From Macrostomum lignano (taxonomy: Eukaryota): a DNA stretch of 56,744 nt. The position numbers and the translations under genes are program-made. Where the stretch lies: contig NIVC01002692.1 of the NCBI GenBank assembly GCA_002269645.1, positions 1 to 56,744 on the forward strand, written 5' to 3'. Positions 20,389-44,550 of the stretch are shown piece by piece. How positions within the stretch are numbered: position 1 is the stretch's first letter; every line of letters starts with the position of its first letter. Below the pieces are notes generated by a model, which was given only the letters and a program-made list of their open reading frames with translations, was not told where the DNA came from and searched no databases.

Positions 20389-21549
20389 GCTGAGAGAGCA
20401 AGAGATTGCACTGCGCACCTACTGCAAGAGCCAAGAGGGAAACTATTGATTTACCTCCTCCCCGATGAGAACCAATGAGCTCACAGATTAAAAGTTGACC
20501 AAGCAACAAGGAATGATGGTGTACATTCTGCAGCACTTGTTGCGATGGAAATTTTCCTGATCCTGTACCCGCGGTCCGACAACCCCCAACCAAAAATTGT
20601 ATGGCAACGAAAAAACTTATAAAACCGGTAACAAGATAACAGAATATATAATTTCCGTTATCCAAAGTCATAACTGAAGCTGACAATTTTCAAGCCCAGA
20701 CATGCTTCCTGTCGAACGCTTGCTGTTCGTCTTCTTGGCGAGCATCCTGGTGGTAGTGACGCTGTTGTTCTACCAAGCCACCGCATCCAGCTCAGGCCAA
20801 AATGAACGCTACTACACTCAGGTGGGCACCGCTGGCGGCAACAGTTTCCCCCCAGCATTCAAAGTGCTCGAAGGCAGCAGCATTCGTTGCTCGATCTGGT
20901 GCTGGCAGACGCCGAGATGCCTCGGTTTCTACTGGACGGTGAGCTCGATGCTGTGCCAGCTGTTTAACGCTTCGGTCTACTACTGGAAACCGTCGTGGGG
21001 TGCCATTGCGGACCAGCAGAGCGAGTTCTACATGTACAACGCCAGTGAGTATTTCTTGTTCATAGATAGCGCGTGCGGATGTTCATAGATAGCGCGTGCG
21101 GACTAGCTGTACCTATGGGAGCTGAGAAATGAAGATGATTTCGCCTCCAGTTTAGGGAGTTCGGCCTTTGACTATTAACAAAATGACTTACAGAAGAAGT
21201 TCATTTTTAACAAGATATTCTCTGTTTAAGGCTACAACTGTATAACAGAATCTTCCGCGGCATCAATTGAAGACTTGTGTCTGGTAATTAGAAGCCGTCT
21301 CCGGTTGAAACGCCTGCTTCATGTGACGGGGGATGCCGCTTCTTCCTCAACAATTATTTCTAGGACTCGTTTTTAGGAAAATTCGATGTTACTTAAATTA
21401 GATTTACAGTAAACCTCATTTCGCGCGTCTCATTTCAGCTCCTCAGAGGCTGCATTTCTTCAACTGCAGCCAGATTTCAGCGGCCTATAGTGCCTTTTGC
21501 ACACGAGCCATGGACAACAACACGAATACGCATTTTTTTGATGGAGGTT

Positions 21550-21678
21550 AGTAGTATGGGATAACAGAACTCTGCCGCAGGAATTTCCGTGGAAAAGCCA
21601 TGGGCCCTAGTGAGTGAACATACGGCCCTATGTAAATCCATTGAGCGACTCTGCCGCAGGGCAGGCCATGGAAATTCC
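21550..21678 (+). repeat. Polinton left terminal inverted repeat (129 bp)
   Basis: Reverse complement of 37555..37683 with 5 mismatches by my count. Confidence 0.95.
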
Positions 21679-22299
21679 GTGAGACCTCCTAGTGAGAGTA
21701 CATTGGTGCAAGTATTTGCGAATGGGGTGGGGCTCCGCGGGAATTCCGTTAACCGCAATGAATGAGTATTGGCAAATGCGTGTTCTGCTACGACGGACAC
21801 AGGCGGTTCGGTTCATAAAACCAGGCAATGCTTTGCTTCTGAATGACATTTAATATTCCATCGGGTATCGTAAAAGGAGGAGGGGCGTGTCTTTATTTCA
21901 ATGATTACAATAAAATCAATTTGCAATTCATGTCTAAAATTTGAGCTACCAACTGTTGAAAAATCACTTGATTTTGGAATTTAAGGATTTTGGAATTTTG
22001 GAATTAATTGAAACTTTTGCCTATTAATTAGGCAAAAGTTTCAATAACAAGATGCTGCTTTAATAAGATTATAATAGCCAAGCATCTCCCCCTTTCTTGG
22101 GGTGGTGGGTGTGTTGCTAAATGGAATTGGACGCTCAATAATTATCAGTTTTATTGCTCCCCAGTCTGGTCGGGAGTTCCAGTTGGCGGCAAGTGCAAAG
22201 GAACTTTTGTACATGTATGCTTTCAATAGAGGCTCTGTATCTGGGTTTTCTAATAAAATTATTTTAAAAAACCGGTTTCTGAGACGGCTGGGTTACTGA

Positions 22300-22393
22300 C
22301 TGTAAACATAGCTAAGCTGTAAACATAGCTAAGCTGTAAACATAGCGGCTATGTTTTTATTAACACAGATTCGAATAAGCGAGGTATATAAGA
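22300..22393 (+). promoter_or_regulatory. Putative promoter of the left Polinton ORF: 3x 17-bp repeat containing TGTAAACA, then TATATAAGA
   Basis: ctgtaaacatagctaag at 22300, 22317 and 22334 (partial); TATATAAGA at 22385-22393, about 100 bp before ATG 22487. Confidence 0.6.
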
Positions 22394-22486
22394 CACCGTA
22401 TACTTGAATACGGGACATAAGTTTCTACTTCTAATTTGAATTTAACTTCAATTTGATTTTTCTATTCAAACATTAAAAAATTTGGA

Positions 22487-23833
22487 ATGAATAAATCGCG
22501 CTGCCCTTCATATGTGTACGAGGTATGCATTTCCTGCAACTCATGTGAGCTCGGTGGCTTAAAACGTCACAAAATGAAAAGCAGCTGCAATGTCAGTCGC
22601 TGGCTGCTTTGCCACGAGTGCCAGACGCGTGAGCTCTTTAATGTGCGCCAGCAAGTTCGAGCTCACAAAAACCACATTATTATTAACTGGAGCTCACCTG
22701 GAGATTTAAAACGAGCCCGCTTTGCTGCCTTGGAGGCTGCCCAGCGTCAAGAGCAGCTCAACATTATCGAGCGCAGTCGAGCACCGGTCAGCGCACTCAG
22801 CCAGACAATTCAGGGCGTCTTTCAGCAGCCTGATGAAGATTTTCAGCACGCTACCGATGCAAACTTTGATCTGCTTGCCGCTGCACTTGCCGCTGTGGAG
22901 CAGCAATCAGATTTTTTTGGTTCAACCGCTGCGCCAGCTGCTGATGCCGGCCTCCCAGCTGACGGTGCCGGCCTTCCAACTACTGATGCCGGCCTCCCAG
23001 CTGACGGTGCCGGCCTTCCAACTACTGATGCCGGCCTCCCAGCTGACGGTGCCGGCCTTCCAACTACTGATGCCGGCCTCCCAGCTGACGGTGCCGGCCT
23101 TCCAACTACTGATGCCGGCCTCCCAGCTGACGGTGCCGGCCTTCCAACTACTGATGCCGGCCTCCCAGCTGACGGTGCCGGCCTTCCAACTACTGATGCT
23201 GGCCTCCCAGCTGACGGTGCCGGCCTTCCAACTACTGATGCTGGCCTCCCAGCTGACGGTGCCGGCCTTCCAACTACTGATGCCGGCCTCCCAGCTGACG
23301 GTGCCGGCCTTCCAACTACTGATGCTGGCCTCCCAGCTGACGGTGCCGGCCTTCCAACTACTGATGCCGGCCTCCCAGCTGACGGTGCCGGCCTTCCAAC
23401 TACTGATGCCGGCCTCCCAGCTGACAGTGCCGGCCTTCCAACTGCTGATGCCGGCCTCCCAGCTGACGATTCCACTGGTTTTGCAGCTCCTTCGGAGTTG
23501 GATACTGCCTTCTTCGAGGATGTCGATTTGGAGCCTGTTGAGCTGGCAAATGAAGAAGCTGAGCAGCAACAGATGCCACCCTACAGGCCTGTTCCAGTCG
23601 CAGGAAAAAATATGGAGCAAGCCAGAATGATGGCAGAAGCAAGCCTATCCGATCTCCTGCGAGAATTCGAACCTCCTACTCCACCGGCTGCACCAGAAAT
23701 CCAAACCGGTGACATCCCAGTCGTAGAAGCCATGCCACCGATGCCACCGTCAGTCTGCATTCAGCTGGTACTACCGAGCAGAGTCGAGGGCGAGTATTTT
23801 ATTGACCTTGGGGAGGAACTCGCATTCGCTTAA
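22487..23833 (+). CDS. Polinton 448-aa protein: Cys/His-rich N-terminus with LxCxE (LLCHE), about 12.5 x 14-aa repeat, acidic/Pro-rich C-terminus
   Basis: Long ORF inside the TIRs, downstream of a TATA box; 42-bp coding repeat TTDAGLPADGAGLP at about 22935..23470. Confidence 0.75.
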   Translation: MNKSRCPSYVYEVCISCNSCELGGLKRHKMKSSCNVSRWLLCHECQTRELFNVRQQVRAHKNHIIINWSSPGDLKRARFAALEAAQRQEQLNIIERSRAPVSALSQTIQGVFQQPDEDFQHATDANFDLLAAALAAVEQQSDFFGSTAAPAADAGLPADGAGLPTTDAGLPADGAGLPTTDAGLPADGAGLPTTDAGLPADGAGLPTTDAGLPADGAGLPTTDAGLPADGAGLPTTDAGLPADGAGLPTTDAGLPADGAGLPTTDAGLPADGAGLPTTDAGLPADGAGLPTTDAGLPADGAGLPTTDAGLPADSAGLPTADAGLPADDSTGFAAPSELDTAFFEDVDLEPVELANEEAEQQQMPPYRPVPVAGKNMEQARMMAEASLSDLLREFEPPTPPAAPEIQTGDIPVVEAMPPMPPSVCIQLVLPSRVEGEYFIDLGEELAFA

Positions 23834-24532
23834 GTAGCTCTTAAAGTGTCCCAGTTCAAAGTATTTAAAAGTAGGGGAAACGAGATTTGTAGATTTTTAG
23901 GGTAAAACCAATGCATTCTACCCTGCATAAATATTAACTAATTACGTTGCACCTCATCGTGCTCATACAGGTTTCTCATAAACAAAGTGAAAAAGAAAAT
24001 AATTTAGGCTTACTGTTCAAACTTATTCTTATAATAAAGCTTTAATAAGCAGCTTTAATTAGTAGGGTGACTAACGAGCATGATTTTTTGCATTGCGAAA
24101 TGCTTTACCAGAAATATAATGGATTGATGGTTGCTTTTAATGAAAGCTTTTGCACTTTCTTGGACTTTGTTGAATTCATTACTTGTTTTTTTTCAATCAT
24201 GTGAATATCTTCGAAGAAGTTATAGGTTCACTCGCTTATAGAATTACCGTTAGGTTCACAGCATCTACTCAACTCTATGAGTATAATATGGGATTGATGA
24301 TCTATGATACCCAATGTTTAGAATGACATGAATTTGGTTTGTCAAGCATGACTTTGGTTAGATTCAATTTCTGCTCCATAGAGCTCTGAATGCTGGAAAT
24401 TTATCACTCCACTACATCTCTGACAGAATTGCACTTGGGTTAAATTTATCAAACAACACTTTTACACTGGAATTTCAGCAGCATTGAGTTCTTCACTAAA
24501 TGTCGCTCTATTTCTAATATTAATTCTCTGCA

Positions 24533-27500
24533 ATGGCCACCTCATCGAGTCAAGAGGACGAGCCGGTGGACCCAGCTGTCAGCCACGAATTTGGACCGAG
24601 TGGTAAGTTTTTTCATTCCATTGCTGGTTTTATGAACTCATGCATTTCTGTTTGTTGCATTCCTGTCTCTTAGCAACGGAATTATTTATATTTTTCTCGC
24701 CTACACAACAATTCCCAAATGGTTCCCAACAGGATTAAGCCGGAGAACTCACAATAATGAGACATTTTTATTCCTCATTAGATGAATTGACAAAAATGCG
24801 AAAGCAGAACTCCATCTATTTCTTCAATAATAACTCTTCAAATTCTTTTTTTACACTTATACGTAGCTCGTATTGATTAATAAAAAAATATTAAATCTAG
24901 ATATAAGGTAGTAGGATAAATAGTATACTCGTAAGTGTAAAAAAGGGCAATAAAATATTCGACTTCCATAACTCCCAGAGACATTTCTCATCATTTCCAC
25001 TTTCCATAAATATTTTTAATACTATCTTCCCTTCTTCAATTGTAGGACCTTCATTCACCCTGGCGTTAAAAACCAGCGCTCACGAAGATGTTCTTCAAGT
25101 TCATCGATTTACACCTGGAGCTGCCACTGAAACATTCGAGTTTCTCGATTTCTGCAAAATCGCAGTGCAGCAGTGTCTTGAAATTCGCTTCGACTCTTCG
25201 GATAATTGCTCTGTTAAAGCTCAGATCAAACTGAATTTGCGCATGGTCAGAGTGCAGGCGTCAGAAGCTGTCAAGGGGGAGGATAAATGGATGAGCACAC
25301 AACTCGGATTGGTGGTAGATATACAGGAGTTTGATGATTGGTGGAGACAGCAGTTTACAGAGCTGGAGCGCAAAGTCGATGTCTACAACACCAACGGTAG
25401 TGGCTGGATAATTGAAAAAATCAATTTTTTTGAACTTTACTCAGCTCTCGTCGAACGAGTTTCCTACTACACGGGGCATGCTGCGGAATTTATTCTACCG
25501 ACTCCACTTCTTCGGAAGAAGGCGGTTATTTGTCCTCCAAGCAATGGTGTAAATTGCTTTCTTTACGCATGCCTTGCTTTTCTGCACAAGGAAGACAACA
25601 AAATAAAGAAATCAGCGCAACGCGAGTCTTCCTACACTGACTGGCTGGATGAACTTAACATGAGTGGAATTGACTTGCCAATCAATGTCACCGACCTTTC
25701 CATTGTTGAGAGACTGAACCCGAGACTTTGCTTCACGGTTTTCATCTGGGAGAAAGAGAGCGCTCAAGTCCTCCGCTTGCCTACTGCAGCTACAATTAAA
25801 GATCGAGAAGTTGTTCTACTCTTATTTATTCCACCATCAGAAGACGAGGCCTCGGGTCATTGGTGTGCTGTTTCAAGCATCAACAGGCTTCTTAATAGCA
25901 AGGCAGCTCTGCATCGGCGGAAGTGGTGTGAGCGCTGCTTGCTGCCCTTTCATAGTGATGCAGCCTTTGAAGAACACAGCCGAGCTCCTTGTCAACCTGG
26001 AGTGATCAACGTCAAGGAAGAGTTGCCAGATGAAAGGAATAATATTCTCCGATTCTCATCATGGGAAAAAACAATTAGTCCGCCATTTGTTGTTTACGCC
26101 GACTTCGAAGCATTGAATGCTCCATGCCAAGAAGATTCGATTGCTGGTATAGCAACGAAGAAGTTAACTGAGCACATTGCTGTTGCTGCTGGCTACATCG
26201 TGCTGCACAGAGAAGGGATGACTGGTCTAGCGCCCAGAGGAGCGGATGATAAAGTGAGCACTTTTGTCAGCGACGATCCTAATAAGTGCATTTCCGATTT
26301 CCTGCAATCGCTGGAGAAGCTCGCTCGTGAAGTTTACGGCTGGAACACGGAGTTCAGTCGACAAGCAGCGATAAGAACAGAGATGGCAGGGCGACAGTTC
26401 AGAGAAGCCACAGCTTGCTGCTATTGTAGAAGCGAATTCACGGAAGGGTCCAATAAACATTGGGATCACGACCACCTCAGCGGAGAATTTCGGGGAGCTG
26501 CGTGTGCTGATTGTAATATGAAGGCCAGACTAAAGAGGTCTTTCCTTCCCGTCGTGTTCCACAATTTCAAGGGGTACGATCTCCATCTCATGATGTCATC
26601 CGCTTTGGGTCTGATGGAGGGTTGGAAAATCTCCGTCATCCCTCTGAATCCAGAGCAGTTTCTGTCGATGAAAATCGAATTTAAAATCGGCGAGTATGAG
26701 AGTGAGGGCAAGATCAAGCCTTTAAATTTTACTATTCAGTTCATTGATTCGAATCAATTTCTTAATGCCAGCCTCTCACAGCTCATCAAAAATTTACCAG
26801 AGGCTGAATGTCGTATCACTAGTCGCCTACGCAGCAGCAGATTCCCACTGCTATCATCCGAAGTGCTTTTCAGCAAGGGAGTTTTCCCGTATGACTATCT
26901 TAAAAATTCAGACGTGCTGAAGGATGCCGTGCTTCCCAGCCAAGAGAGCTTCTACAATGCTCTGACTAAGAGCCACTGCACCAACTCTGACTATGAGCAT
27001 GCTCAACGCGCCTGGCGAGAATTTCAGGTTTCAAATCTAAAAGAGTACATGCTGTGCTACCTCGAGCTCGACATCAGGCAGTTGGCTGATATTTTTGAAA
27101 ATTTTCGCAAGATCAGCATGCAAGAGGATGGCCTTGATCCAGTCCATTTTATTTCGACACCAGGCCTATCATTCGCTTCGGCATTGAAATCCATCAAGTC
27201 AGGGATTGAACTGCTAACAGATGCGCAGATGTATTCGCTGTTTGAGCGCGGCATTCGCGGCGGCATGTCGTTTGTTAACATCCACAAAGTGCAGGCTACC
27301 TCAGCAGCGGGCGCCAGCACTGGTGTTGACAGCAATGAGGATGTTGATGGTGGCACTCCTACTATTCATGCTGGCCTCACCGAGCTTCTTGCTGTGGATG
27401 CAAACAACCTGTATGGACAGGCGCTCACTATGAACTTACCAGTCGGAGGATTCCGTTGGCTGGACGATGATGAGCTGCTTTTGTGGACTGAAGATCGCAT

Positions 27501-28688
27501 TCGAGGACTCAAGCTAACCGATCCACTCGCCTACCTCTTTGATGTTGACCTTGAGTATCCCCCAGAGATTCACGAAACCACCGAAGACCTACCATTTGCA
27601 CCGGAAAAGGCTGCCCCGAATTTCAGGGAATTTCCTGAATACATGCAGCAGCTGTGGGAAAAGGTCGGTACGGAGAACTCCACCTATCATCCGACAGAGA
27701 AGCTGATGCTCACTTGTCACGATAAGCCTTCCTATGTGGTTCATTCCTCTATTTTGGCGTTCTACCTGAACCATGGAATGCGGGTTAGACGCATCAATCG
27801 CATGATTGAGTTTCACCAAGAGCCTCTCTTTGCTGCCTACGTCGAGAAAAATAGCCAGAAGCGGGCTGCAGCGAAAACCAACTTCGAAAAGGATTTCTAC
27901 AAGTTAAAGAATAACGCGCTATTCGGCAAAACTATGGAGAATGTGCGAAAGCGGCGTGATATTCGAGTCTGCACCAACGTGGAAAAGGTAAAGGTACTGC
28001 TTGCCAAGCCGACAATTACCAATTTTATCATAATTACTGATTCACTAAGCGTTTTGGAACTGCAAAAGACAAAATTAAAGCTCGATCGGCCTATTTTTAT
28101 CGGGCAATGCGTCCTAGACTTTTCGAAAATGATTATGTACGAGCTGTTTTACGACAAACTGAAGCCCTGGATAGAGAACGATGGAGGTGTCATCAAGCTA
28201 TGCGGTGGTGATACCGATTCTTTCTTTCTCTCAATCAGCAACATGAGCGTTCAGTCTAAAGTTCTACCGCTGTTGAAGTCGAAGCAGCTGCTCGACACTT
28301 CAAACTATCCTCAAGAGCACGCGCTATTCTCGAATGATTTAAAAGCGCGACTTGGCTGCATTAAGGATGAAGCAGCCGGTGCTCGCTTTGAGGAGTGGCT
28401 GCTCCTAAGGCCGAAGCTTTACTCATTCAAGGCGAGTAGCCAAGCCGCGGAAAAGAAGAAGGCCAAAGGAGTTCAAGGATGCATTGTTAAGAAAGAGCTG
28501 GCTCACAGTGACTACCTAAGGGTGTTCAATGAGCTCTGCAGCCATTCTGTCGTTGTTCATCGTATTGCCAGCATCCATCACCGACTGTACACTTTGCAGC
28601 AGCGGAAGTGTGCCTTAAGCATTTGGGAAGACAAGCGCGCTTGGCTGAGCCCTAACTATAGTCTCCCATTTGGTCACATTCGGCTGCT

Positions 28689-28757
<69 letters not shown>

Positions 28758-28845
28758 GCAACAGCAGCAACAACAACAACAACAACAACAACAACAGCAG
28801 CAGCAACAGCAGCAGAAATCATCAAAACGGCGCCGACTACTTTGA
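24533..28845 (+). CDS. polB: Protein-primed family-B DNA polymerase, predicted join(24533..24602,25046..28845)
   Basis: Exo I YADFE, endonuclease-VII-like insert (CCYC..DHDHLSGEFRGAACADCN), Exo II HNFKGYD, DANNLYG, KLKNNALFGK, GDTDS, PKLY; polyQ tail and KRRR. Frame open from 25046; phase-1 intron GTAAGT..TTGTAG. Confidence 0.92.
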
Positions 28846-29405
28846 AATTGAATAATGAGTACAACAAGCTTGCTAAACAAAAACAATAATTTCTTTGCGA
28901 TTTCAAAGTTTCTTTCTTTGACATTGAATAAAGGTTAACCGCTAATCTAAATAGGATTTTTTCCAAATGCAATAAAAACTTTGATCATCTGCTGAGGCTA
29001 GCAACAATTTTTTGCTTCACAATATTTACTTACAATTGCGCGATGATGATAATGAAACCAATGCTTCGTTAGTGGTGGTGGTGGTGTTTGCGGTGATGGC
29101 ATGTGAGAGTTTTATTTTTTTCTAATTTTACCTGTACTTTGTGGTTGGTTTTTTGAATCCTGATATTGCTTTATAAGTTTTAATATATTCCATCTGCTTT
29201 TGGACTATTTTTTCCTATTTTTGTAGTGGTTTATCTGCTTGCTCGTATTTGCTTTTAGCTTGCTATTTGTTTATCTCTACAAGATGTTCACCACTGGTTT
29301 TTCATTGCAATTAAAAATGAAGACAAAAAAGCTAGTGCATGAGAGAGAATTAATTTGAATATTTTAATTAAACAAGCCGCGATTTATTCTTTCTTTTTAT
29401 TTATT

Positions 29406-29972
29406 TCAGTTTGAAAGCAAGCAAGCTAATAGGGAACGGTCTGATTGTAGCATATGCTTAGACTTTGCTCCGCTGAGCACAAATGAGCCATTGTGAAAAA
29501 GCGTACACTTGCAGTATTGAAGCTGACAAACTAAAGCAGTAAAACTTTCAGGTTCATATTTCGCATTCGGTAGCACTTCACAGAGGTTTCTTAGTGATAG
29601 AGCCTTGGGCAAGTCTATTTTTCCATAAGCAGTAATAGTCTTAATTCGGACACAAACGGATTGACGAGGCAGCAGTTGAGGCGGAACTCTGCGATGCAGC
29701 ATAGCCACGAAGCGACGGGCAGCCTTGACTGAGGCCGAGTAGCTCCGGGCGCCACAGATACTCAGTTGTCCAGTCGGATAGAGCAACAGAGTCACTCTGG
29801 GATTCCGCATCCTCTTGATGAGCACTCGGGGCCAGACGGGGCGATAGATGACATGAGCCATGCTGAGAGCCAGTTCCCGCAGAGGCAACTGGGCACCCCT
29901 GCCTCCAGCCAGCCTCAGATCCACGCCGCCAACCAGATTGGTCACTCGCAGGGCTGTCGCAGGTGTACTCAT
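29406..29972 (-). CDS. TBP: Polinton-encoded TATA-binding protein homolog (188 aa, both core repeats)
   Basis: VTNLV..VDL, YRP.WP.V.I.RMRNPRVTLLLYPTGQL.ICGARS...S..AARRF; then YEPESFTAL...CTLFHNGSFVLSGAKS. This matches the TBP core consensus in both halves. Confidence 0.88.
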   Translation of the reverse strand: MSTPATALRVTNLVGGVDLRLAGGRGAQLPLRELALSMAHVIYRPVWPRVLIKRMRNPRVTLLLYPTGQLSICGARSYSASVKAARRFVAMLHRRVPPQLLPRQSVCVRIKTITAYGKIDLPKALSLRNLCEVLPNAKYEPESFTALVCQLQYCKCTLFHNGSFVLSGAKSKHMLQSDRSLLACLLSN

Positions 29973-30486
29973 TTAGAGAGTCCTTTCTGTCAGTGGTGCT
30001 GTCTTTGAGAGCCTTTGAGTGGTGCGGGCACACCTCGCTTCTTAAGTTGATACAGAACTTTGGCTTCAGCCAGTTGTAGTAGAGCAATACATTTTTCACT
30101 GCACAACCAGTATCAGATGCTTGAATCAAAGGTGATCCCAGATCCTCTAGGTTGTACACCTGTCTGCCAAGCAGCTCAGTCAGAAAGATGGACTTTTTCA
30201 CCCCGCTTGTCCAGGTGGGGCCGTAAGCAATGTTTAGAATGTCATTTGCCAAATGCATGTACGATCGGGATCCATCTGTCCACTTGAAATGATGCAAATT
30301 CTTTGAGAGCTTTCTGTAATGCACCTGCATCTCAGGTGAGATTCGCTCCCATGAGAACGGAGAGGCGTACACGTGATGAGTGATATGGTAACTGCCTGCC
30401 CGGACTTGGGCAATGGCTAGCTCCTTCACAACGAAATCTCTGCTCGATCTCTCGCGTGGGAAGCCTTGGAAGTCAATATAGTTCAT
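29641..30486 (-). CDS. Polinton accessory protein, possibly DEDD/DnaQ-like fold (first about 165 aa); 3' part overlaps the TBP ORF
   Basis: YIDFQGF..FVVKELA, HHFKWTDG, VYNLEDLG, CAVKNV..Y.WL pattern recalled from Polinton hypothetical proteins; fold call is inference. Confidence 0.6.
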   Translation of the reverse strand: MNYIDFQGFPRERSSRDFVVKELAIAQVRAGSYHITHHVYASPFSWERISPEMQVHYRKLSKNLHHFKWTDGSRSYMHLANDILNIAYGPTWTSGVKKSIFLTELLGRQVYNLEDLGSPLIQASDTGCAVKNVLLYYNWLKPKFCINLRSEVCPHHSKALKDSTTDRKDSLNEYTCDSPASDQSGWRRGSEAGWRQGCPVASAGTGSQHGSCHLSPRLAPSAHQEDAESQSDSVALSDWTTEYLWRPELLGLSQGCPSLRGYAASQSSASTAASSIRLCPN

Positions 30487-30526
30487 GATCGGATGGTTTC
30501 AAGATGCCTGATATCGGGAAGCCGAC

Positions 30527-31219
30527 TCAGTTCCCCTTCTTAAATAGTTTTTTCCTGTTCAGCTGTAGCCAAGCTCTCCCACTCCCGAATCCTTTAACTG
30601 TATGATGAGCAGGGGCGGCCTCTGGAGAAACAGCAGGTTTAGAAATTAGCTGCCTAACTGACTTTCCTATGGCCGAAGCTGGGATGTTAAGCTTTTTATC
30701 TTGGAGCAATGAGACAAACTCACTCCAGCCCACCGGCTCGCTGGCACATTTCGAATCCCTCACGGCACTGTGAAACAAATCCAGGATGTTTGAGGAGGGT
30801 ATTGTCTTCCCACAAATTTGCGCCTCGCCATTTTCGGACACCCGAATCAGAGAAGGATTGCCAGATAGGATGGCCCATAGACTGCGGGCTCTCGCTTTAA
30901 ACTTCTGCGGCACGGATTGGGTGATCTTTTCCCCCCAGCTGCTTGGTGCAATATCAGTTTTCAGCATCTTTGCATCACTCGCAGGTACCGCATCATCCTT
31001 TCCAGTCCGCTTGCGCTTGGCCAGCAAACTCTTCATCGCATCATGGTACATGGCAGCTTTCACATCGTCTGGGCAATCCTCGGCAAGCAAAATATCATTG
31101 CATTTCCTCTGCGCATATCTCACAGCAGTGTCGAGTTCAGACTCAACTGGCTTCAAATTCTGTGTGAGCATGTCGTATTCTGACTTGGGGATCAGAACCA
31201 TTTCTGAGAACTTATTCAT
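30527..31219 (-). CDS. Polinton hypothetical protein (230 aa)
   Basis: Co-oriented ORF in the gene block; MVLIP..YD.L and G..I..SNILDL motifs resemble recurrent Maverick proteins. Confidence 0.75.
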   Translation of the reverse strand: MNKFSEMVLIPKSEYDMLTQNLKPVESELDTAVRYAQRKCNDILLAEDCPDDVKAAMYHDAMKSLLAKRKRTGKDDAVPASDAKMLKTDIAPSSWGEKITQSVPQKFKARARSLWAILSGNPSLIRVSENGEAQICGKTIPSSNILDLFHSAVRDSKCASEPVGWSEFVSLLQDKKLNIPASAIGKSVRQLISKPAVSPEAAPAHHTVKGFGSGRAWLQLNRKKLFKKGN

Positions 31220-31559
31220 TTTGTTTCTTTTTCTTCACTAGCTTTATTAGAATGTAGAGAATTTTGATAAAACCCGTATTTAGCAGATCCGCAGCTCTTC
31301 TATGTGTAGAAATTTTGCGGATTATTTGCTTTTGCTTCACTAGCGCTGCCTTTTCAGTGAGTGAGAACGACAGAGTGTTTTGCAATAGGTTATAGCAGGC
31401 CTCAATGAGAAATTCATGTACTGCTTTTGGACCCGCTCTGATCAACAGACGTTTAAAGCTGATGGAATATTTCGGTGAGGCGAGAACATCAAACAAACTT
31501 TCATGTGAGTCGAATGTTTCCATTATCATTAGTGTTGCAGAATATAGAGCAAATGGCAA
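31212..31559 (-). CDS. Small basic Polinton protein (115 aa) with amphipathic C-terminus
   Basis: LIEACYNLL.N.L.F....K..L.K.K.IIRKI pattern typical of the small gene next to the Polinton ATPase. Confidence 0.7.
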   Translation of the reverse strand: MPFALYSATLMIMETFDSHESLFDVLASPKYSISFKRLLIRAGPKAVHEFLIEACYNLLQNTLSFSLTEKAALVKQKQIIRKISTHRRAADLLNTGFIKILYILIKLVKKKKQNE

Positions 31560-31576
31560 AATCTCGGCTGTTATTC

Positions 31577-32230
31577 TTAAGTGTAAACCAGGTGGGGTCG
31601 CTGATTGGGCAGGATTCGAGCCCGGACCCGCAGCTCATCAGGGGTGGAAGGGTGAAAATCCAGGAGCAGGTAGGCTCCCCTGCCGTGCGATGTCACGTGC
31701 TTGAACACTGACAGCAGAAAGCCGGGCTTCTCAGCAAAACACTGCCTGCCCAGCGCCGCAATCTGCAGCTGGTCTCTGGGGTTCTTCATGATCACAAAGT
31801 ACATCGCATTCAGACTCATTGTTCGCAACTCCTTCCCTTTAAAAAATACATTTTGGGTCAGCATAACCAGAAAGCAGGGCAAATGATGGGCAATTCCAGT
31901 GAAAACATTTCGCATTGCAGCAGAATTGGAAGTTTCTTCAATCAGGTCATCAAATACAACCAGGTCATTGGGTCTCAGTGCGGTCTCGATACTGCTGGGA
32001 AATCCCTGCTGCAAGTGCACGCCGAGACTGCTGAGCTCAGAGTGTGCTGCTTGTGAAATTCCGTAGTACCACAGAACTCTCCCAGGCTTCACATCAAACA
32101 TGACATCCTTGTATTGTATCAGATGTTTCACGAAGGTTGTCTTTCCTGCATTTGTAGGCCCGCTGACAATCATGCAGCTTCCTTGTCGCAGGCGCACATC
32201 ATAACAGTTTATCCGCTCACGTGTTTCCAT
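31577..32230 (-). CDS. DNA packaging ATPase (A32/FtsK-HerA type)
   Basis: Walker A GPTNAGKT, Walker B LVVFDDL, LTQN, RTMSLNAMY, YLLLDFHP. Confidence 0.93.
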   Translation of the reverse strand: METRERINCYDVRLRQGSCMIVSGPTNAGKTTFVKHLIQYKDVMFDVKPGRVLWYYGISQAAHSELSSLGVHLQQGFPSSIETALRPNDLVVFDDLIEETSNSAAMRNVFTGIAHHLPCFLVMLTQNVFFKGKELRTMSLNAMYFVIMKNPRDQLQIAALGRQCFAEKPGFLLSVFKHVTSHGRGAYLLLDFHPSTPDELRVRARILPNQRPHLVYT

Positions 32231-32263
32231 CGCCTGTTGAGCTAAATCCTTGATTTTAAAAGT

Positions 32264-32782
32264 CTAATTAAATTTATTTTTTCTTAAGCAACTCTCAAAC
32301 CTTTGCAGAATTCTTTCATTCAAGTGGCTCTGCTGATTTGCATGGAGGTGCCGCAGAACCCACTCAAACGAGCGCTTGAAACGAAACTTTTGATAGGCAA
32401 ACAAGAGACAGAACAAACCGCATTTAGCAGAGTTGCAGCTCTGAATTCGATTCACATTGCTACGTAAGTAGAATGGAGAATACCAAAAGGATTTCAGTGC
32501 TCTGTGAATGATCTCTAAAGTGCTTGAGTCCCAGCCCAGAGAGTTAAAGAGTTCTATGGAATTCTCCTTATTGGCATAACAAACCACCCAGTGACCAAAG
32601 GACGAGCCGTACTGAAGCAGAAAGAAAATAAACCTACATCGAGATAAATTTCTTTTGAGAGTTGCTCGCTGAATAAAGTTTAAAGCATAAGATGTTTTAT
32701 TTATTGAATTCAAGACAATAATTAAATAGTTATTTTGTGGCAAAAAGCTTTTAGCCAGTTTAAGCAGTTGAAAAGCATCCAT
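32264..32782 (-). CDS. Adenain-type cysteine protease
   Basis: GHWV, FNSLG, QS.NSAKCGLFCL (His, Asn/Asp, Gln, Cys order of adenoviral proteases). Confidence 0.9.
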   Translation of the reverse strand: MDAFQLLKLAKSFLPQNNYLIIVLNSINKTSYALNFIQRATLKRNLSRCRFIFFLLQYGSSFGHWVVCYANKENSIELFNSLGWDSSTLEIIHRALKSFWYSPFYLRSNVNRIQSCNSAKCGLFCLLFAYQKFRFKRSFEWVLRHLHANQQSHLNERILQRFESCLRKNKFN

Positions 32783-32805
32783 ATTAGCGTTGCGCCAGCG
32801 TACTC

Positions 32806-34088
32806 CTAGGATGGAAAATCTAGCAGAATCTCCCTGTGCTTCGTGACCTCAATCAGTGAGTCATACAGGCACATAACAATCAGAGATACAGGCTCCTCCA
32901 GGGCCTGTCGGAAGCGAATCTCCAGCCGCAAATTTCCCTCCTTCTGTCCGTACCACAGGGCCGCTCCCTCAGGCGTGAGATCGAATGCGAAAGCTGTGTT
33001 GCCGTTGGAGAACAACTGGTAGGGGACCCACGGAACCGAGTTGGTAGGGCTGGCAGACTGACAGCTTTTCAGGTAGTGCAAGTACTCTCTCACGAATGAA
33101 TTATTCTCAGGTGCAAATGCAGCGTGGCACATGGCTTCACCACCTTTCTTTAGTGCTAGCTGGCTGAGGTTGAAGCTCTGGAACTCGAAGGGGCTGGAAT
33201 GGTGATGGCCATTGAAGGCTCGGTGGTTCACGAAGACCAGCATAACGAACTTCGGCAGTTTGCCATGGGTGAATCCTTCAATGTTTTTTGACTGAATTCC
33301 CTGGGGTAGAATGAAGTTTTGCATTTCGGTTCGCTCGATGGGGTAAAGTGCGTTCTGATTGGTAAGTCCCTGCTCATGCGCTAGGCTGATGTGAGGCGCC
33401 ACTTTGACTCGGCGCAGGTTCAGAATACAATGGGAAATTTCAATTCGGTAGGCTGTGTTGTTCTCATCTGGGGTTCGGATGGCAAATGCAGCTTCACTGG
33501 GCATCAGCTTGATGTGCAGGTGTAAATTGTTCAGCAGCAGAACAGGACACTGGAAGATGTCGCTGAGCAGCGGTCCCGCATACTCCACCCAGCGGGACTC
33601 CCTGTGTCTCTCGGCATGCCCCTCAGCAGCAGTTTCGGGTTCCAGGAATCCGGCGGGGTAGAAATTTAACTGCTGAGCATCGGATGAGCTCATGAGAGCT
33701 TTTAGGTAGGCATGGTAGGGGTAGAGCTGGTCTCCGCCAGAGACAATGCGCTGGTTGATGCTCACGATTACATCTGAGAATGCCGTAGATAGGACAAAGT
33801 TTTCTGGGTGCACCCCACTGTCTCTGCGCTCAGTGACAACTCCATCGGCATTCCGAACCTCCTCCCTCATCAAAGCCCCGCCAAGCCGGACTAGGCGACA
33901 GCGAATATACAGGAATGAGCTCAGCAGATCAGTGTACTCATCAGCCGATGGATGGCAGTCGAATTCAATTGGTGAGTTAGTAGAAATAGAGTTCACGGGG
34001 TGAATATCAACATACGTGATTTTTCAATAGCAGTCTGCAGCACGGGGGACTTGAACAAATCGAGTCTCGGGTTGAATCCGTAAGCCAT
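32806..34088 (-). CDS. Major (double jelly-roll) capsid protein; 1-nt deletion at about 34017 in this copy
   Basis: Near-identical to intact 427-aa ORF 42012..43295; acgtgat here versus acgttgat there; position and size fit the Polinton major capsid. Confidence 0.85.
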
Positions 34089-34090
34089 TG

Positions 34091-34507
34091 CTATGAGAGT
34101 GAGTCCAGAACACGCTTCACAGTTTCTTTGCCCACTTTTTGTTTTCTTTTGCCTGTTTTCTTGGCCTGTGTTTTAGTCGTTCTTTTCTTAGGTTGCTTGC
34201 TTGTTCTGACCTTGCTTGTTTTGCGTGCTTCGCCACTTTTTTTCTTCTTCTTCATGCGCACCTGCTTTTTATTCACCTTTTTAGCCTGTCCTTGATTTCC
34301 TATGTTTCTATTACTCGTACTATTGCTTCTGCTGCTACTGCTGGTTTGTACAGGCTTTGATGCTAATGATGATGATGATGTTATGGAAGGTGCTGGAGGA
34401 GGCTGGTAAGTCATTATTCCAGGAAAACTCCCGCAGCCATAGAGCATGGACTTTTCATTTCCCGTCCGAGTCCCTGAATACTGCCGAATCAGCTGCTGAT
34501 AGTTCAT
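34091..34507 (-). CDS. Lys/Ser-rich basic protein (138 aa), candidate DNA-condensing core protein
   Basis: Strongly basic C-terminal half; sits between the two capsid genes. Confidence 0.7.
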   Translation of the reverse strand: MNYQQLIRQYSGTRTGNEKSMLYGCGSFPGIMTYQPPPAPSITSSSSLASKPVQTSSSSRSNSTSNRNIGNQGQAKKVNKKQVRMKKKKKSGEARKTSKVRTSKQPKKRTTKTQAKKTGKRKQKVGKETVKRVLDSLS

Positions 34508-35331
34508 TGCATTGGTCTCTCACGTATCAGAATTGTGAGCAGAACAGGGCTGCCGCTATGAGCAGTCAGTGAGAAGCCAAAGATGTCTCGCAGTTGAACT
34601 CGAATGCTGTGTAGAAAATTTGTTTTCTGAATGGGGAAGAAAACTGTTTTCTTAAACACTTTGCTCCAGTAGCTTCCCCATCCGGCTTCAGGATTCATGT
34701 TCACAGTTCGCAGCAGGGAATTCCAGTTGCAATTAGTTGACTCCACAATGCTACAATGCACGTTGATCAGATTGGTGGGCGGGCAGCCAATGTGGTACAT
34801 GGAAACTTGGCGCCCAGGTGGAATTTTCACGGACTGATTTCCGAATCCCAGCCACTGCAGAATTTTACTTGATGGAAGGAATAATTCTGCTCGAGCCGTG
34901 TTGTTGAGCACTACCGTTCTCAATTCTTGGATCTCAAACTTTATGCCAATATCTCTAGCGCTGCTCCGCCCCATTAAACCAGACTCATCAGCCTCCATTT
35001 CAGACTCCCTCTCACTCATTGCATCGAAGAACAGTGACTCAGAGTTGGCCAGCAGCTCATTCATGCGCTCCACCAACTCCTCCACTCTAGCAAAGCGTCC
35101 GGGTTGAAGAACCAAGGCCTCATGCTCTCTTCCATCTGAGACAGTGAAGCAGTAAGGCTCGTCAACATTGAACCATGCAGCAGGCAGATGGATTTCAGCC
35201 AGACCTGCCTCATAGTCCACATTTCGATCCAAGTAAATAGGTGAAGGCAGGTGAAAATGAAAGTCAGCAGGAGTACCTTCAGCATTTTCGCTGTTAATGA
35301 TGATGCTTCTCATAATTGGGAATGGCTGCAC
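34504..35331 (-). CDS. Minor capsid (penton-like) protein; likely ATG start at 35313
   Basis: NSE......PADF.F.LP.PI.L....YEAGLAEI.LP, I.VHCSIVE, LLR.V, I.VQLRD..G pattern of Polinton minor capsids. Confidence 0.8.
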   Translation of the reverse strand: MQPFPIMRSIIINSENAEGTPADFHFHLPSPIYLDRNVDYEAGLAEIHLPAAWFNVDEPYCFTVSDGREHEALVLQPGRFARVEELVERMNELLANSESLFFDAMSERESEMEADESGLMGRSSARDIGIKFEIQELRTVVLNNTARAELFLPSSKILQWLGFGNQSVKIPPGRQVSMYHIGCPPTNLINVHCSIVESTNCNWNSLLRTVNMNPEAGWGSYWSKVFKKTVFFPIQKTNFLHSIRVQLRDIFGFSLTAHSGSPVLLTILIRERPMQ

Positions 35332-35343
35332 AATGTCGGCATC

Positions 35344-36411
35344 TTACACTTTTCTTAAGTCCTTCTCATCCACCCAGTCAGTGGAGTCGTAGCCGGCCCA
35401 CTTGACCAGATATCGGATCTTTCCCTGCCGCTTCTCAGTCTTCAAAATCTTTTCAATCACATACAGCCGCTGCGACTCCGGAACGGCCTGCAGTTCATGC
35501 TCGTGAAAAAGCCCACGAATCTCTTCTCCTTTCATGTCTTTTATCTTGTACATGTAGGGATAATGCTTTGGAGCTCTGGACACCACCGTGTACACTTCTT
35601 CGCTCCAGTTGGCCTTGTACCCTTTTCTAAAAAGCCTGGGTGCATTGGAAATCCGCACAGACTGGTTTTCGCTGAACTTTGGCTTTCCCAGCTTTTCCAC
35701 AGTTTCAATCGCTTTCCCGTCATATAGGCTCATCCAGACCTCGGACTCGTTCTCCTGGCTGACATTCGTTGGGGCCATTCGTATGCTTCTGTGGTATGTT
35801 TTGTTGTAGGACTTCACTAGCTTAGGCAACACATCAAGCCAATGCAGAGTGCTGTTGTGAGTGAAGTAGCGCCACATTTTGCTCTTTAAAGTTCGGTTCC
35901 ATCGTTCAATGACAGCCGCCTTCTGCTCACTGTTGGTTGGGAATGCCAGGATTCCCCTTTCCATACAGCATTGGCGAAAAGTAGAGTTGATAAACTCTTT
36001 CCCCTGATCAGTGCGAACAGTGCGCGGTTGCCGCTTTGAACTTCTTAATATGCTCTCGAATGCCGACTTCACTTCAATAGAAGACTTGTTCTTTAATGCC
36101 CTCGCCCATCCGTACTTGGACAGCACATCAATGCATGTTAGAATATACCTGTAGCCGTTATTATACTTGGAAAAAGGAATCATCTCCACCAGATCCAACT
36201 CCCATTGGTCATCAATACTTCGAACTATGATTGGGGCCCTCGGATAATTCCTCCTTGCTGGCTTATGTAATGTGTAGACTGTCTGATCGTTAAGCCAGTT
36301 TTTCGCAGCTTTTTCACTCACTCGGATACCCTGCGTGCGAACTTCATTAATAAATTTATTGCAGCCAGAAAAGCTTGCTGGCTGCTCAGGGTTAAAGTAA
36401 ATCTTTTCCAT
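35344..36411 (-). CDS. Retroviral-like (rve) integrase with C-terminal chromodomain
   Basis: WELDLVEM, RTDQGKEF, ERWNRTLK (DDE triad), YN.TYHRSIRMAP, YVIEKILK....YLVKWAGY...WV. Confidence 0.95.
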   Translation of the reverse strand: MEKIYFNPEQPASFSGCNKFINEVRTQGIRVSEKAAKNWLNDQTVYTLHKPARRNYPRAPIIVRSIDDQWELDLVEMIPFSKYNNGYRYILTCIDVLSKYGWARALKNKSSIEVKSAFESILRSSKRQPRTVRTDQGKEFINSTFRQCCMERGILAFPTNSEQKAAVIERWNRTLKSKMWRYFTHNSTLHWLDVLPKLVKSYNKTYHRSIRMAPTNVSQENESEVWMSLYDGKAIETVEKLGKPKFSENQSVRISNAPRLFRKGYKANWSEEVYTVVSRAPKHYPYMYKIKDMKGEEIRGLFHEHELQAVPESQRLYVIEKILKTEKRQGKIRYLVKWAGYDSTDWVDEKDLRKV

Positions 36412-36631
36412 TTTTAATTAGAGAAAAAATTAAACTCATTTCGCATTCTTAAGTTCACCAGTAAACTAGCATAACTATAGAGAGAGATGCTTATTTTATT
36501 TTATTTTTAATTTTAAACGAGCTCATTTAATAGGACATTAATGAATAAGCTGAAAAAGCTGGATAAATAGAACTGTTAGACATCAATACAGATGGCATAG
36601 CAATGTCCACGCATAGTCACTTAAAAAGTTA

Positions 36632-37360
36632 TCAAGCACTTTTGTCTGCGTCACCATCCTCTCCACCATTGATCACTTTGGGCAACTTGATTGCATTTTG
36701 CCTGCGCAGGGGCCACGGAAGCTTTCGTTTGTGACAGCCGCTGTTGCCGAGCCCTGAAGCAGCACGGAACCGGTACCACAGTGGGTCGTGCGACAGGTCG
36801 CTGTCTTGCTGGGGTATGCGCCCGACTGAAGTCTCTGGCAGAACAGGCGAGCTGGTTGCATTGTCCGACTCGACGATGCGCAGCCTCTTCTCTTCTTCTT
36901 CTTCTTCTTCGCTGACCGGCAGAGTTTCTTGGCCCTCATGCTTGATGTCCTCGGCCTCCAGCTGATACTCACTCTCCGCCGACTTCTCTCGCAGCTCGTT
37001 GTCGATCCACTCGGCCTTCTTCCAGAGTTCTCCCCATAGACGGGGAGTCAGCGCCACTGAGTTCCGCCGCAGATAATCCTCTGTACAGTCTTCCGGCAGG
37101 CGCTTCAGCCAGATGATACCCCTGCTGACCACAACGAGTTTATCAAAGCCAAGCTTGACTGTGACGCTGTGCCGATTGACTGCCGAGTGCACAAGCTGGC
37201 GTTTCAGCTGCTTCAACTTCTCCCATTGGTATGCATTGAGGTTAAAGCCAGGGATGCCCGCTCTGAGCCCGCTTTCAGAGGAGAAGAAACGTCGGATTGC
37301 AATAAAGCGATGACCTTCGTACTCTTGCACTTGAACTTTGAAGCCGTCACAGAGATCCAT
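36632..37360 (-). CDS. PC4/Sub1-like ssDNA-binding protein with two PC4-like repeats and acidic tail (242 aa)
   Basis: KVQVQEYEGHRFIAIRRFF....RAGIPGFNLNAYQWEKLK matches the PC4 core; second SVALTPRLWGELWKKAEWIDNEL; poly-Glu. Confidence 0.75.
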   Translation of the reverse strand: MDLCDGFKVQVQEYEGHRFIAIRRFFSSESGLRAGIPGFNLNAYQWEKLKQLKRQLVHSAVNRHSVTVKLGFDKLVVVSRGIIWLKRLPEDCTEDYLRRNSVALTPRLWGELWKKAEWIDNELREKSAESEYQLEAEDIKHEGQETLPVSEEEEEEEKRLRIVESDNATSSPVLPETSVGRIPQQDSDLSHDPLWYRFRAASGLGNSGCHKRKLPWPLRRQNAIKLPKVINGGEDGDADKSA

Positions 37361-37433
37361 TAATGATATGTTTCTTTAAGAAGGATGCACAAAAATTCCT
37401 TTCGTCATGAAGCCAACCTCAAAAAATCGCCCA

Positions 37434-37442
37434 TCTTATATA
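37434..37442 (-). promoter_or_regulatory. TATA box (TATATAAGA) upstream of the PC4-like gene
   Basis: tcttatata on + strand, about 75 bp upstream of ATG 37360; same 9-mer as at 22385. Confidence 0.55.
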
Positions 37443-37554
37443 TACTTTCTAGGCGGAGTGGGGTGGGTGCAATAATGAGTTTCCTTCAGTACATATACCA
37501 GCATGCGCTTTGTTATCTCACCGGGCCCCCATGCCCACCCGATGTGCCCCCCAT

Positions 37555-37683
37555 GGAATTTCCATGGCTTTCCCTGCGGCAGAGTCGCTCAATGGATTTA
37601 CATGGGCCCGTATGTTCACTCACTAGGGCCCATGGCTTTTCCACGGAAATTCCTGCGGCGGAGTTCTGTTATCCCATACTACT
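37555..37683 (-). repeat. Polinton right terminal inverted repeat
   Basis: Ends ...cccatactact followed by TSD gaggtt. Confidence 0.95.
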
Positions 37684-39646
37684 GAGGTTCTTGCATTCAC
37701 ACCAACAACGAGATCAAACCGTGGTGGGAGGCCGATCTCGCCCAAACAGCCGTTATCGTCTACGCCACCATCTACAACAGGATTGACATGTCCCCAGAGC
37801 GACTGAACAACTTTGAAATATTGGTTGACAACGTTTTCTGCGGTCGAGTGAACGTGACGCAACACTTTGTTGTGACCAACGTGACCTGCGGCTTGACCGG
37901 AAGCAAAGTTCGACTGGTGAGCCAACTCACCGAACACCTGACCATGTGCGAGTTCGAGCCTTACGGGTTCTACATTCAGTGAGGAAGGATCGCTGCTGAT
38001 GAAGTATTTGAGTTTCACTCGAGCTCAATATAGTCTATATAATAGCTGAACTGGAATGTGACAGGGTCTCCTTAAGTTTAAGTTATGAAATGAGGCCAAT
38101 ACAGCTCGTAATTTCGAATAGGACTTAACGCATGTTTAAAGGGCTTTAACGGCTAATGCAGCTGCTAGCTACCTGTAGAGCTTTTGAGGAGTGAAATCTG
38201 CATGCCAGAATCGATTCATGCCTCAATTTGTGAGGGGTTTGTTTGCTTTCACGAGCGCAATGAAGGACGATATGAGCAATTCTTAGCACTTTTTGTAAGC
38301 GGCCAGTGCAATTAAAGATCAAAACCAAAGCGCTAATGAAAGTTTAGGATTTATAGTTTGAATATTTTATATTTTAGGGACTTCCCTATTCTAAACTTAT
38401 GGGATGAATGGAAAAAATGTTGATTGTGCGGTATATGAAAAAATATGGCTCTAAAATGGAATTGGCGATAGCGATGGGTCTCAGGAAATGAAATTGATAT
38501 GCATGGCGATCGGAATATTCGCGAGTTTTTTAACTTTTATAAACATTTAAATTGCTATTTAGACTTCTTATTATGTTTTTTAAGGTTCATATAATATTCC
38601 TTTCTAATTTAAGTTTATACTTTCTCTGATTTTTTAGATGTGTGTAATGTTTTTTCTTCTTTTGTAATGAAACAGCCAGCTAGTCGTAAAAAGTTGTTTT
38701 GATACAGGCACGTCAATTTACGGTTTACGATTGTTTTTTTGTTTTATAACTCTTAATTTTTGTTATAGCTTTATGGGTGTTTTTTCAAAAATTAAAAGCA
38801 TATTTTAGAAAGCCGAATTAAGTTGGATTGTTCAAGGGCTACGCTTGTTAAATTTACCTGTGTTTTTTAGATTTGCTGCTTCACCTGAACCAAACATTAG
38901 CTATACTGTACACGTTACATGTAAGTACTGTAAATGCATCCGGAATTTTGTTATTATTTTATAATATACACGCTAGCTTAGCTTTGACGCTTAGCAAGAT
39001 CTTATTTTTCCATCGCGGTTCTATTTAATTATAGTTTTTTGCTTGATGATGAATTATTTATTAACTTCCTGCATGCCTACAGTCAACATAGCTATAGCTT
39101 GCAGTTATGATCCGCATGTGCGGAGGCGGTTTATTTTTAATTGTTTATTAATAAAACAATAACATATATTAATTAATTTTTGCAAACCCCGCCAGGGTGT
39201 GGGGGGTCACTCGTGCCTCAGTCCTCGTCCCTTGAGGATGACTAGTTCCCAATCCAAGCAAAAAGTCTATATGCTAACACTATAACTATCAGGATGGTAT
39301 ATATATATGCGTTGGGTGCCTGCATTGCCAGCAACAGCTTTATGGGGGCATCCAGCTCATAAATGCCTGTCAACTGATAGCACGGATAATCAATTAAGTT
39401 TAAAAAAATTTGCCCAGAGTCAGAGAGTCAATTGTCAGGTCTTGCCGAGGCTATCTCTCGTCTCTTTCCTAATTCTACCCTCATGCATGCAGCAGTATGA
39501 AGCCGCGCCAGACCATGCAGTTGCTTTTTGGCATCCTTAATTGGCTTCGGCCCCGTGTTAGACCTGCATGGACTGTGGATCTCTGTATATCTGGATTGGA
39601 AGCCCACCTGTAGCCAAATAAAAATATTATAATGTCCTAAAAATCC

Positions 39647-40275: not shown

Positions 40276-40417
40276 CTCGCAATCCTCGGCAAGCAAAATA
40301 TCATTGCATTTCCTCTGCGCATATCTCACAGCAGTGTCGAGTTCAGACTCAACTGGCTTCAAATTCTGTGTGAGCATGTCGTATTCTGACTTGGGGATCA
40401 GAACCATTTCTGAGAAC

Positions 40418-40765: not shown

Positions 40766-40782
40766 AATCTCGGCTGTTATTC

Positions 40783-41436: not shown

Positions 41437-41469
41437 CGCCTGTTGAGCTAAATCCTTGATTTTAAAAGT

Positions 41470-41988: not shown

Positions 41989-42011
41989 ATTAGCGTTGCG
42001 CCAGCGTACTC

Positions 42012-43295: not shown

Positions 43296-43297
43296 GC

Positions 43298-44538: not shown

Positions 44539-44550
44539 AATGTCGGCATC

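Follow-up and report, generated by a model that had tools for sequence, protein, structure and literature searches.

The window analysed here, 56,744 nucleotides of a Macrostomum lignano contig, contains a Polinton/Maverick element of the adintovirus type. The element is flanked by a 6-bp target-site duplication and lies inside a host gene (20432-21549 and 37684-39272) that encodes an F5/8 type C galactose-binding domain. This gene is duplicated, and its other copy in the same window (52210-54928) represents the empty site, with one single GAGGTT at 53338-53343. Besides the terminal inverted repeats (TIRs) with (AGT)2 ends, Pfam analysis identified the family B DNA polymerase pPolB (DNA_pol_B_2, 52 bits), a retroviral-type integrase (rve, 47.8 bits) and a protease (Peptidase_C5, 23.8 bits, over cut-off), whereas the putative packaging ATPase was recognized by its Walker A motif with sub-threshold matches only. 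The putative jelly-roll major and minor capsid genes gave no Pfam match and were assigned by size, order and conservation. The features of the element are as follows.

21544-21549: left target-site duplication, GAGGTT, 6 bp (right copy at 37684-37689)
21550-37683: Polinton element, 16,134 bp, with the ends AGTAGT...ACTACT
21550-21681: left TIR, 132 nt, starting AGTAGT, 95% complementary to the right TIR
22487-23833, plus strand: orf448, left terminal gene, with a paired CxxC N-terminus and a 42-bp tandem repeat, holding the sole LxCxE
25243-28845, plus strand: pPolB, organellar/viral type, with an endonuclease VII-like stretch
29406-29972, minus strand: TATA-binding protein (TBP) of type 1, 188 aa, core only
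29641-30486, minus strand: orf281, a conserved domain of ~170 aa with no Pfam family and a tail that runs over TBP repeat 1 in a different frame
30527-31219, minus strand: orf230, without family, conserved in lineages A and B, with a weak match in D
31212-31529, minus strand: orf105, small basic protein, possibly a core protein, judged by a similarly placed lineage F gene with an Adeno_PX match
31577-32230, minus strand: P-loop ATPase, putative packaging ATPase, with Walker A in the translation
32264-32782, minus strand: adenovirus-type cysteine protease
32806-34090, minus strand: putative major capsid gene, assigned by size, position and conservation, with the frame interrupted near its start in this copy
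34091-34507, minus strand: orf138, basic
34504-35313, minus strand: putative minor capsid gene
35344-36411, minus strand: retroviral-type integrase with a chromodomain
36632-37360, minus strand: PC4-like protein, right terminal gene (22.5 bits, E 8e-5, under the Pfam cut-off of 25)
37552-37683: right TIR

As originally predicted, no RNA polymerase family was found among the 13 ORFs scanned with Pfam. At 24533-25243, a short ATG-led stretch ends in GTAAGT and TTGTAG lies downstream, which suggests that pPolB may have spliced 5' exons and be fed from the left early promoter. The orf281 domain (29974-30486) resembled unnamed Atlas clusters (0.95-0.97), most of them from arthropods, and Maelstrom (0.88), a lead that suggests a nuclease-like fold. 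Separately, 40262-49481 was a tandem duplicate (99.8%, 9.2 kb) of 31054-40275 that contained the right arm of the element, flanking host DNA and a 23-bp satellite, without TBP and without the left arm. The duplicate may be real or an assembly artefact.

The TBP gene had been predicted from the sequence as an intronless 188-aa ORF with both TBP repeats, the last gene of the minus-strand block and well inside the TIRs. The frame contains no intron or stop, lies 7.7-7.9 kb inside the 132-bp TIRs and is followed by AATAAA. Pfam recovered the TBP family (PF00352) in two stretches at 79.8 bits against a curated cut-off of 22.9, and the protein matched 35 PDB TBP sequences (E values, 8e-17 to 1e-8). 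Structure prediction, for which the underlying alignment was rich in cellular TBPs, returned a two-repeat saddle with a pLDDT of 95.4 and TM scores of 0.80-0.83 to the ten best solved TBPs.

Residues are named below in what we take to be yeast TBP numbering; in the alignment to host TBP, W47 of the element protein stands opposite Arg98, and P48 opposite Phe99, in 10 of 10 type-1 rows. This numbering agrees with Pro191, Ala100, Ile194, Val203 and Leu205 as named in the available passages of PMC1636458. The intercalating aromatics had been given as W/Y in repeat 1 and F/F in repeat 2; Y65, F144 and F159 stood, but W47 proved to be off-register, leaving only three of the four aromatics and not the set of a canonical TBP. 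The canonical Asn pair with Pro191 was likewise incomplete: N12 was kept, T112 replaces the second Asn (Asn159), as the original prediction had noted, and T145 replaces Pro191. The YEPE stirrup had also been read correctly, at residues 139-142, and E140, P141, E142 and F144 were invariant in 10 of 10 type-1 rows. The E-P-E stirrup is the TFIIB contact. The element TBP shares with cellular TBP, TRF2 and archaeal TBP the fold, both repeats, Asn69, Phe190, Phe207 and the EPE stirrup. In contrast to these, it has Pro in place of Phe99, Arg for Ala100, Tyr for Phe116, Ser for Val122, Lys for Gln158 and Val203, Thr for Asn159 and Val161, and Thr, Ser or Asn for Pro191; an N-terminal extension is absent. 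The basic face of helix 2 is partly kept in lineages A and B and lost in the TBP of lineage C.

These lineages were found in the genome through capsid similarity, and others may exist; all seven sampled (A-G) encode TBP, of two types. In lineages A-C the gene stands at the end of the boxed arm. Lineages D-G, whose putative capsid is 28-34% identical, are four distant Polinton lineages with a very divergent type-2 TBP (L085:945-1499; also L095, L097 and L100), encoded upstream of pPolB in the polymerase arm, behind an apparent splice acceptor and without a box of its own. Type 2 had 26 full-length matches at 99-100% in one lineage, and its nearest Atlas clusters were virus-rich TBP clusters. 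The changes F116Y, V122S/T, N159T/S and V161T/S are common to both types.

Upstream of 8 of the 10 structural-arm genes lies a TATA-like box, YTTAAGAA, with C or T at position 1, T at position 2 and G at position 6 (G6); the protease and orf230 have none. The two terminal genes carry a canonical box. The boxes in this element are as follows.

22385-22392, plus strand: canonical TATATAAG before orf448
30039-30046, minus strand: CTTAAGAA before TBP, with the ATG at box position 75
30537-30544, minus strand: TTTAAGAA before orf281
31574-31581, minus strand: CTTAAGAA before orf105
32281-32288, minus strand: CTTAAGAA before the putative packaging ATPase
34185-34192, minus strand: CCTAAGAA before the putative major capsid gene, where lineage B has CTTAAGAA
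34649-34656, minus strand: TTTAAGAA before orf138, with the ATG at 150
35352-35359, minus strand: CTTAAGAA before the putative minor capsid gene
36446-36453, minus strand: CTTAAGAA before the integrase
37435-37442, minus strand: canonical TATATAAG before the PC4-like gene

TAAGAA occurred 25-150 nt before 8 of the 10 genes of the minus-strand block. Within the block, 10 sites were sense and 0 antisense, and 0 of 100,000 random placements were as good. TTAAGAA was found 12 times in the 16-kb element compared with 3 times in 31 kb of flanking DNA. The box was conserved among lineages. In lineage B, it stands before the same eight genes and falls in several reading frames of the upstream gene; it was also kept in four unrelated integrase leaders. 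Of the integrase leaders, 8 of 10 had it. At the homologous positions, lineage C uses TATAAGAA; the box before its TBP, TATAAAAG, can be aligned codon for codon with the CTTAAGAA before TBP here. Lineages D-G have T(A/T)TAAG(C/T)A, with 5-6 sense and 0 antisense sites each, where 0.2-1.1 were expected. The own-lineage boxes are CTTAAGAA for type 1A, TATAAGAA for type 1C and TATAAGCA for type 2. Across 41 sites, G6 was found in 39, A at position 8 in 39 and C or T at position 1 in 40, although the sites were hand-picked and the search pattern in part determined G6 and positions 7-8; the main pattern left positions 1-2 free.

Canonical boxes on the terminal genes were also a general feature: they were present in 9 of 10 PC4 leaders, as TATATAAG in 5 of 7 fetched left arms, and on 3 of 4 first genes in D-G. 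According to the passages available from PMC1636458, wild-type TBP selects TATATAAG most often and did not select G at position 6, although a cavity can accommodate this base. By its title, PDB entry 1qn5 is wild-type TBP with G at position 6. Lineage A TBP and the gene upstream have the variant box only, whereas lineage C TBP has a canonical box. In lineage B, the orf281 leader carries a composite TATATAAGAAG, in which canonical and variant boxes are joined, in 11 of 13 copies (for example L042:8400, L032 and L045), and one copy has the variant only; the composite is a possible early-plus-late promoter upstream of TBP.

Variation of the box was compared with that of the protein. According to the available text of PMC1636458, Pro191 bars every base except T at box position 1. 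Type 2 TBPs keep Pro191, with T at position 1 in 18 of 18 sites; type 1 TBPs have Thr, Ser or Asn at 191, with T in 8 of 23 sites. Position 1 thus appears to track residue 191, which is suggestive; because the contrast rests on two TBP clades, it counts as one clade-level comparison and not 41. A parallel is the yeast altered-specificity mutant TBPm3, whose substitutions around residues 194/203/205 shift the specificity for the 5' half of the box, as the element changes would (PMC1636458, passages at hand). TBPm3 was engineered and reads TGTA, whereas the changes in the element TBP are natural, fixed and matched by the element promoters.

We consider it probable from these patterns that the element TBP serves the late genes, has a shifted specificity and brings in host TFIIB and Pol II, similar to the TATT-binding factors of herpesviruses. 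Host TBP would first drive the two terminal genes from their canonical TATATAAG boxes. The element TBP would then bind YTTAAGAA before the integrase, capsid, ATPase, orf105, orf138 and orf281 genes and its own gene, and the intact EPE stirrup would recruit host TFIIB and Pol II, so that transcription would be expected to start ~30 nt downstream of the box. Since the TBP gene itself carries the box, self-amplification is possible and could act as a switch from a dormant copy to particle-gene expression. With only the variant box on TBP and the gene upstream in lineage A, first synthesis there would need leak or read-through. The arrangement in D-G, with an unboxed TBP in the polymerase arm, is what an early-to-late cascade would need. 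The original prediction that the protein redirects host Pol II to element promoters is therefore supported as far as purifying selection and a conserved TATA-variant box before most structural genes are concerned; binding is predicted only. Several features speak against a late-gene TBP: the boxes of C-G differ from the canonical box mainly at G6 and might be read by host TBP, the protease and orf230 are unboxed, Phe99 is Pro, and the basic patch of helix 2 is lost in C.

In an alternative reading, the boxes are weak TATA variants recognized by host TBP/TFIID, while the element TBP is a decoy or competitor titrating TFIIB, NC2 or Mot1, or a repressor of host and early promoters. This is unlikely, though the best of the alternatives. 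In its favour, the TFIIB stirrup is intact beside changed DNA-face residues (Pro at Phe99, Lys at Gln158 and Val203); in addition, G6 is tolerated by wild-type TBP, and canonical boxes occur on lineage B orf281 and lineage C TBP. However, the DNA-face changes are fixed across proteins only ~33% identical and have not decayed, the boxes of lineages A and B differ from TATAWAWR at three positions, and box position 1 follows residue 191 of the element TBP and not that of the host. As a small control, 4 of 17 host H3 upstream regions had a canonical TATA, and 2 of 17 had a G6 box that lay far upstream. The decoy reading by itself also leaves the variant box unexplained.

The position of the box relative to gene starts was then considered. 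Starts lay 36-59 nt from box position 1 in 30 of 40 cases and none was nearer, with two short cases settled by a later start or a farther box (a lineage F PLA2-like gene, ATG at 22, and the lineage C minor capsid gene, ATG at 13). ATGs were found at 13 of 800 places at positions 9-28 and 4 of 1070 from position 37 on (Fisher p 0.006). Homology was used to choose the starts; among the 13 early ATGs, 6 were in frame, and out-of-frame ATGs alone numbered 7 of 800 and 3 of 1070 by hand count. The spacing favours a TATA-like role over that of an initiator, the ATG test being modest. No initiator consensus stood out at positions 20-41. Four sets of probable-RNA contigs covered the structural arm evenly, and starts and strand are not readable from such sets.

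It is improbable, in this light, that TAAG serves as an initiator for the RNA polymerase of a helper virus and that TBP has another job. The baculovirus late element is (A/G/T)TAAG, the invariant core of the present box is TAAG, mostly preceded by A or T, and the element has no RNA polymerase of its own. No paired start lay nearer than 36 nt, however, and out-of-frame ATGs at positions 8-28 would be inside the leader if TAAG were the initiator. Positions 8 and 1 are also constrained, giving the size of a TBP site, although positions 7-8 partly reflect the search pattern. A search of the genome for LEF-8, run with no positive control, gave no match.

Much the same small probability is given to a partnership with the Pol III factors Brf1/Bdp1, or to binding of element DNA for replication or packaging, in place of Pol II initiation. 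TBP serves all three polymerases, and the basic face of helix 2 is partly kept in A/B. Against this, the boxes stand before protein-coding genes, their spacing is Pol II-like, AATAAA signals follow downstream, and the basic face is lost in lineage C.

A genome search with the element TBP gave 151 matches, 150 of them listed. Among the matches listed, 94 of 98 near-full-length A/B matches (60-100% identity) were stop-free by hand count, and the lineage C TBP, 36% identical, had 17 full-length stop-free matches (hand count). Copy numbers are soft, host TBP itself being present three times. The host TBP and TRF2-like genes (L051 and L052) have intronless cores, each on three contigs, so that genome duplication or haplotypes have probably raised the element copy counts. 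The TBP gene always followed orf281 in 20 right-arm stretches, 18 of which contained further Polinton genes. Among 10 variants (45 pairs), dN/dS was 0.05-0.45 in repeat 1 and 0.06-0.31 in repeat 2, the latter range leaving out 9 of 45 pairs saturated at synonymous sites. These results demonstrate that the TBP gene is under purifying selection.

The element TBP was 25% identical to host TBP, 22% to host TRF2 and 25-30% to cellular TBPs. In quick trees, type-1 TBPs formed one branch (SH-aLRT 99-100) outside the cluster with host TBP, and a clade with host TBP was rejected (p-AU 0.002). Grouping with TRF2 was absent from the best tree, and a forced TRF2 clade was not rejected (p-AU 0.064); a common origin of types 1 and 2 had a support of 38. 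The nearest named relatives were from Macrostomum lignano (75% and 94%), and the contigs with other relatives, at 31-72% identity, were 0.9-3 kb long. When viral and metagenome contigs were scanned with the type-1 alignment, there were 12 and 42 pattern matches, respectively, of which 0 were confirmed in either set. A recent host retrocopy or neutral passenger, to which the intronless frame might point were the host TBP core not intronless too, can be considered refuted by the low identity and rejected clade, a dN/dS far under 1 and the single position of TBP in lineages A, B and C. A TBP fold, selection and many copies were thus found where the original prediction had named no fold, neutral evolution or a single-copy host retrocopy as the outcomes that would speak against it.

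Comparison of copies revealed an approximate recombination junction at 29618-29672 on the minus strand, at TBP codons ~100-118 between the two repeats. Copies were 94-100% identical over the capsid arm and repeat 1 and ~60-85% in repeat 2, with unrelated DNA beyond (L001, L010, L012, L031, L036, L038, L042 and L044), and the pPolB arms shared 43 to 72% identity. By this pattern, the TBP gene is the apparent crossover point between the arms, with repeats 1 and 2 reshuffled. Also in this region, orf281 is open in the other frame for ~110 codons over repeat 1 (29641-29972), and its tail is Ser-rich. The overlap was 329-332 nt in 47 of 48 A/B loci and 320 in the remaining one; in lineage C it was 386 nt in L046, with 293-aa frames in 3 of 5 more. 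Its chance under synonymous recoding was 0.003-0.019. Dual coding as the cause of the high conservation of repeat 1 was rejected in view of the recombination junction that sliding identity revealed.

The earlier suggestion of a hijack module of TBP with the LxCxE and PC4-like proteins is weak, and the robust unit is TBP plus box. PC4-like genes were present in lineages A-C and not in the fetched stretches of D-G, which carry TBP and boxes. LxCxE was rejected as an Rb-binding motif: the only copy, within the paired CxxC finger of orf448, was conserved in 3 of 7 fetched homologues with the N-terminus shown. A genome search for TFIIB gave 15 matches on 7 contigs, with no multi-copy element-borne TFIIB seen; two loci that were opened held intron-split host-like TFIIB and BRF-like genes.

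A wider reading, which we hold tentatively and at slightly less than even weight, would be that animal Polintons commonly run an early-to-late programme in which a captured minimal TBP co-evolves with a private G6 box, residue 191 and position 1 changing together. In this element, the TBP would be both a self-activating dormancy switch and the arm-crossover point that gives rise to chimeric TBPs. If true, such TBP-promoter pairs would be naturally orthogonal and could serve as a sequence marker for the timing of virion-gene expression in Mavericks. Polinton particles have not been observed (PMC8097293, available text), and TBP with a matching late box would be a concrete mechanism for timing Polinton capsid genes, a single small protein paralleling late transcription in herpesviruses. 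Several natural TBP-box pairs in a culturable flatworm could also probe how TBP specificity can change.

Polintons, Mavericks and adintoviruses, as far as described in the available parts of PMC8502044 and PMC8097293, share with this element the (AGT)2 ends, two convergent gene modules, a size of ~16 kb, pPolB, integrase, ATPase and protease. TBP had been thought to lie outside the standard Polinton gene set; its novelty is lower than assumed, since it is named, without discussion, in the legend of Fig. 5 of PMC8502044 (MELD virus) and in its preprint, as far as the available text goes. One supplement of PMC8502044 contained no TBP match. TATA was absent from the passages available of PMC8097293, PMC11131425, 10.1101/2023.08.22.554363, 10.64898/2026.06.19.733378 and 10.64898/2026.10.13.758929. 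Likewise, TBP was absent from the available portions of nematode, coral and two 2026 survey texts on Polintons, the vertebrate Maverick text being checked for TATA only. A literature search of accessible text found no paper on a Polinton TBP-promoter pair; subscription papers, supplements and Repbase-type annotations may list the gene.

EBV BcRF1, KSHV ORF24 and HCMV UL87 are TBP-like late factors of beta- and gammaherpesviruses that act on TATT boxes (PMC4893493, available passages). As in the element, a TBP-like factor is encoded by a nuclear DNA virus without its own RNA polymerase, and a non-canonical TATA box stands on late genes and a canonical one on early genes, the classes early and late being predicted here (PMC4893493, same passages). 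The herpesvirus factors share ~10% identity with TBP and function within a complex of six proteins (PMC4893493, in the part available). In contrast, the element TBP consists of the 188-aa core alone, shares 25-30% identity with cellular TBPs, retains the TFIIB stirrup and goes with a G6 box. The box is YTTAAGAA and not TATT, and none of the five partner-protein families of the herpesvirus complex was found among the element ORFs. Nucleocytoviricota also encode divergent proteins of the TBP fold, with structural matches at 7-20% identity. Unlike the element, most Nucleocytoviricota with TBP-like proteins encode their own RNA polymerase. Herpesvirus BcRF1/ORF24/UL87 is thus the closest working analogy, with the element TBP outside that family. 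A virus-encoded TBP for late genes is already known, and what appears to be new, on suggestive evidence, is such a TBP in Polintons with lineage-specific boxes that track the protein.
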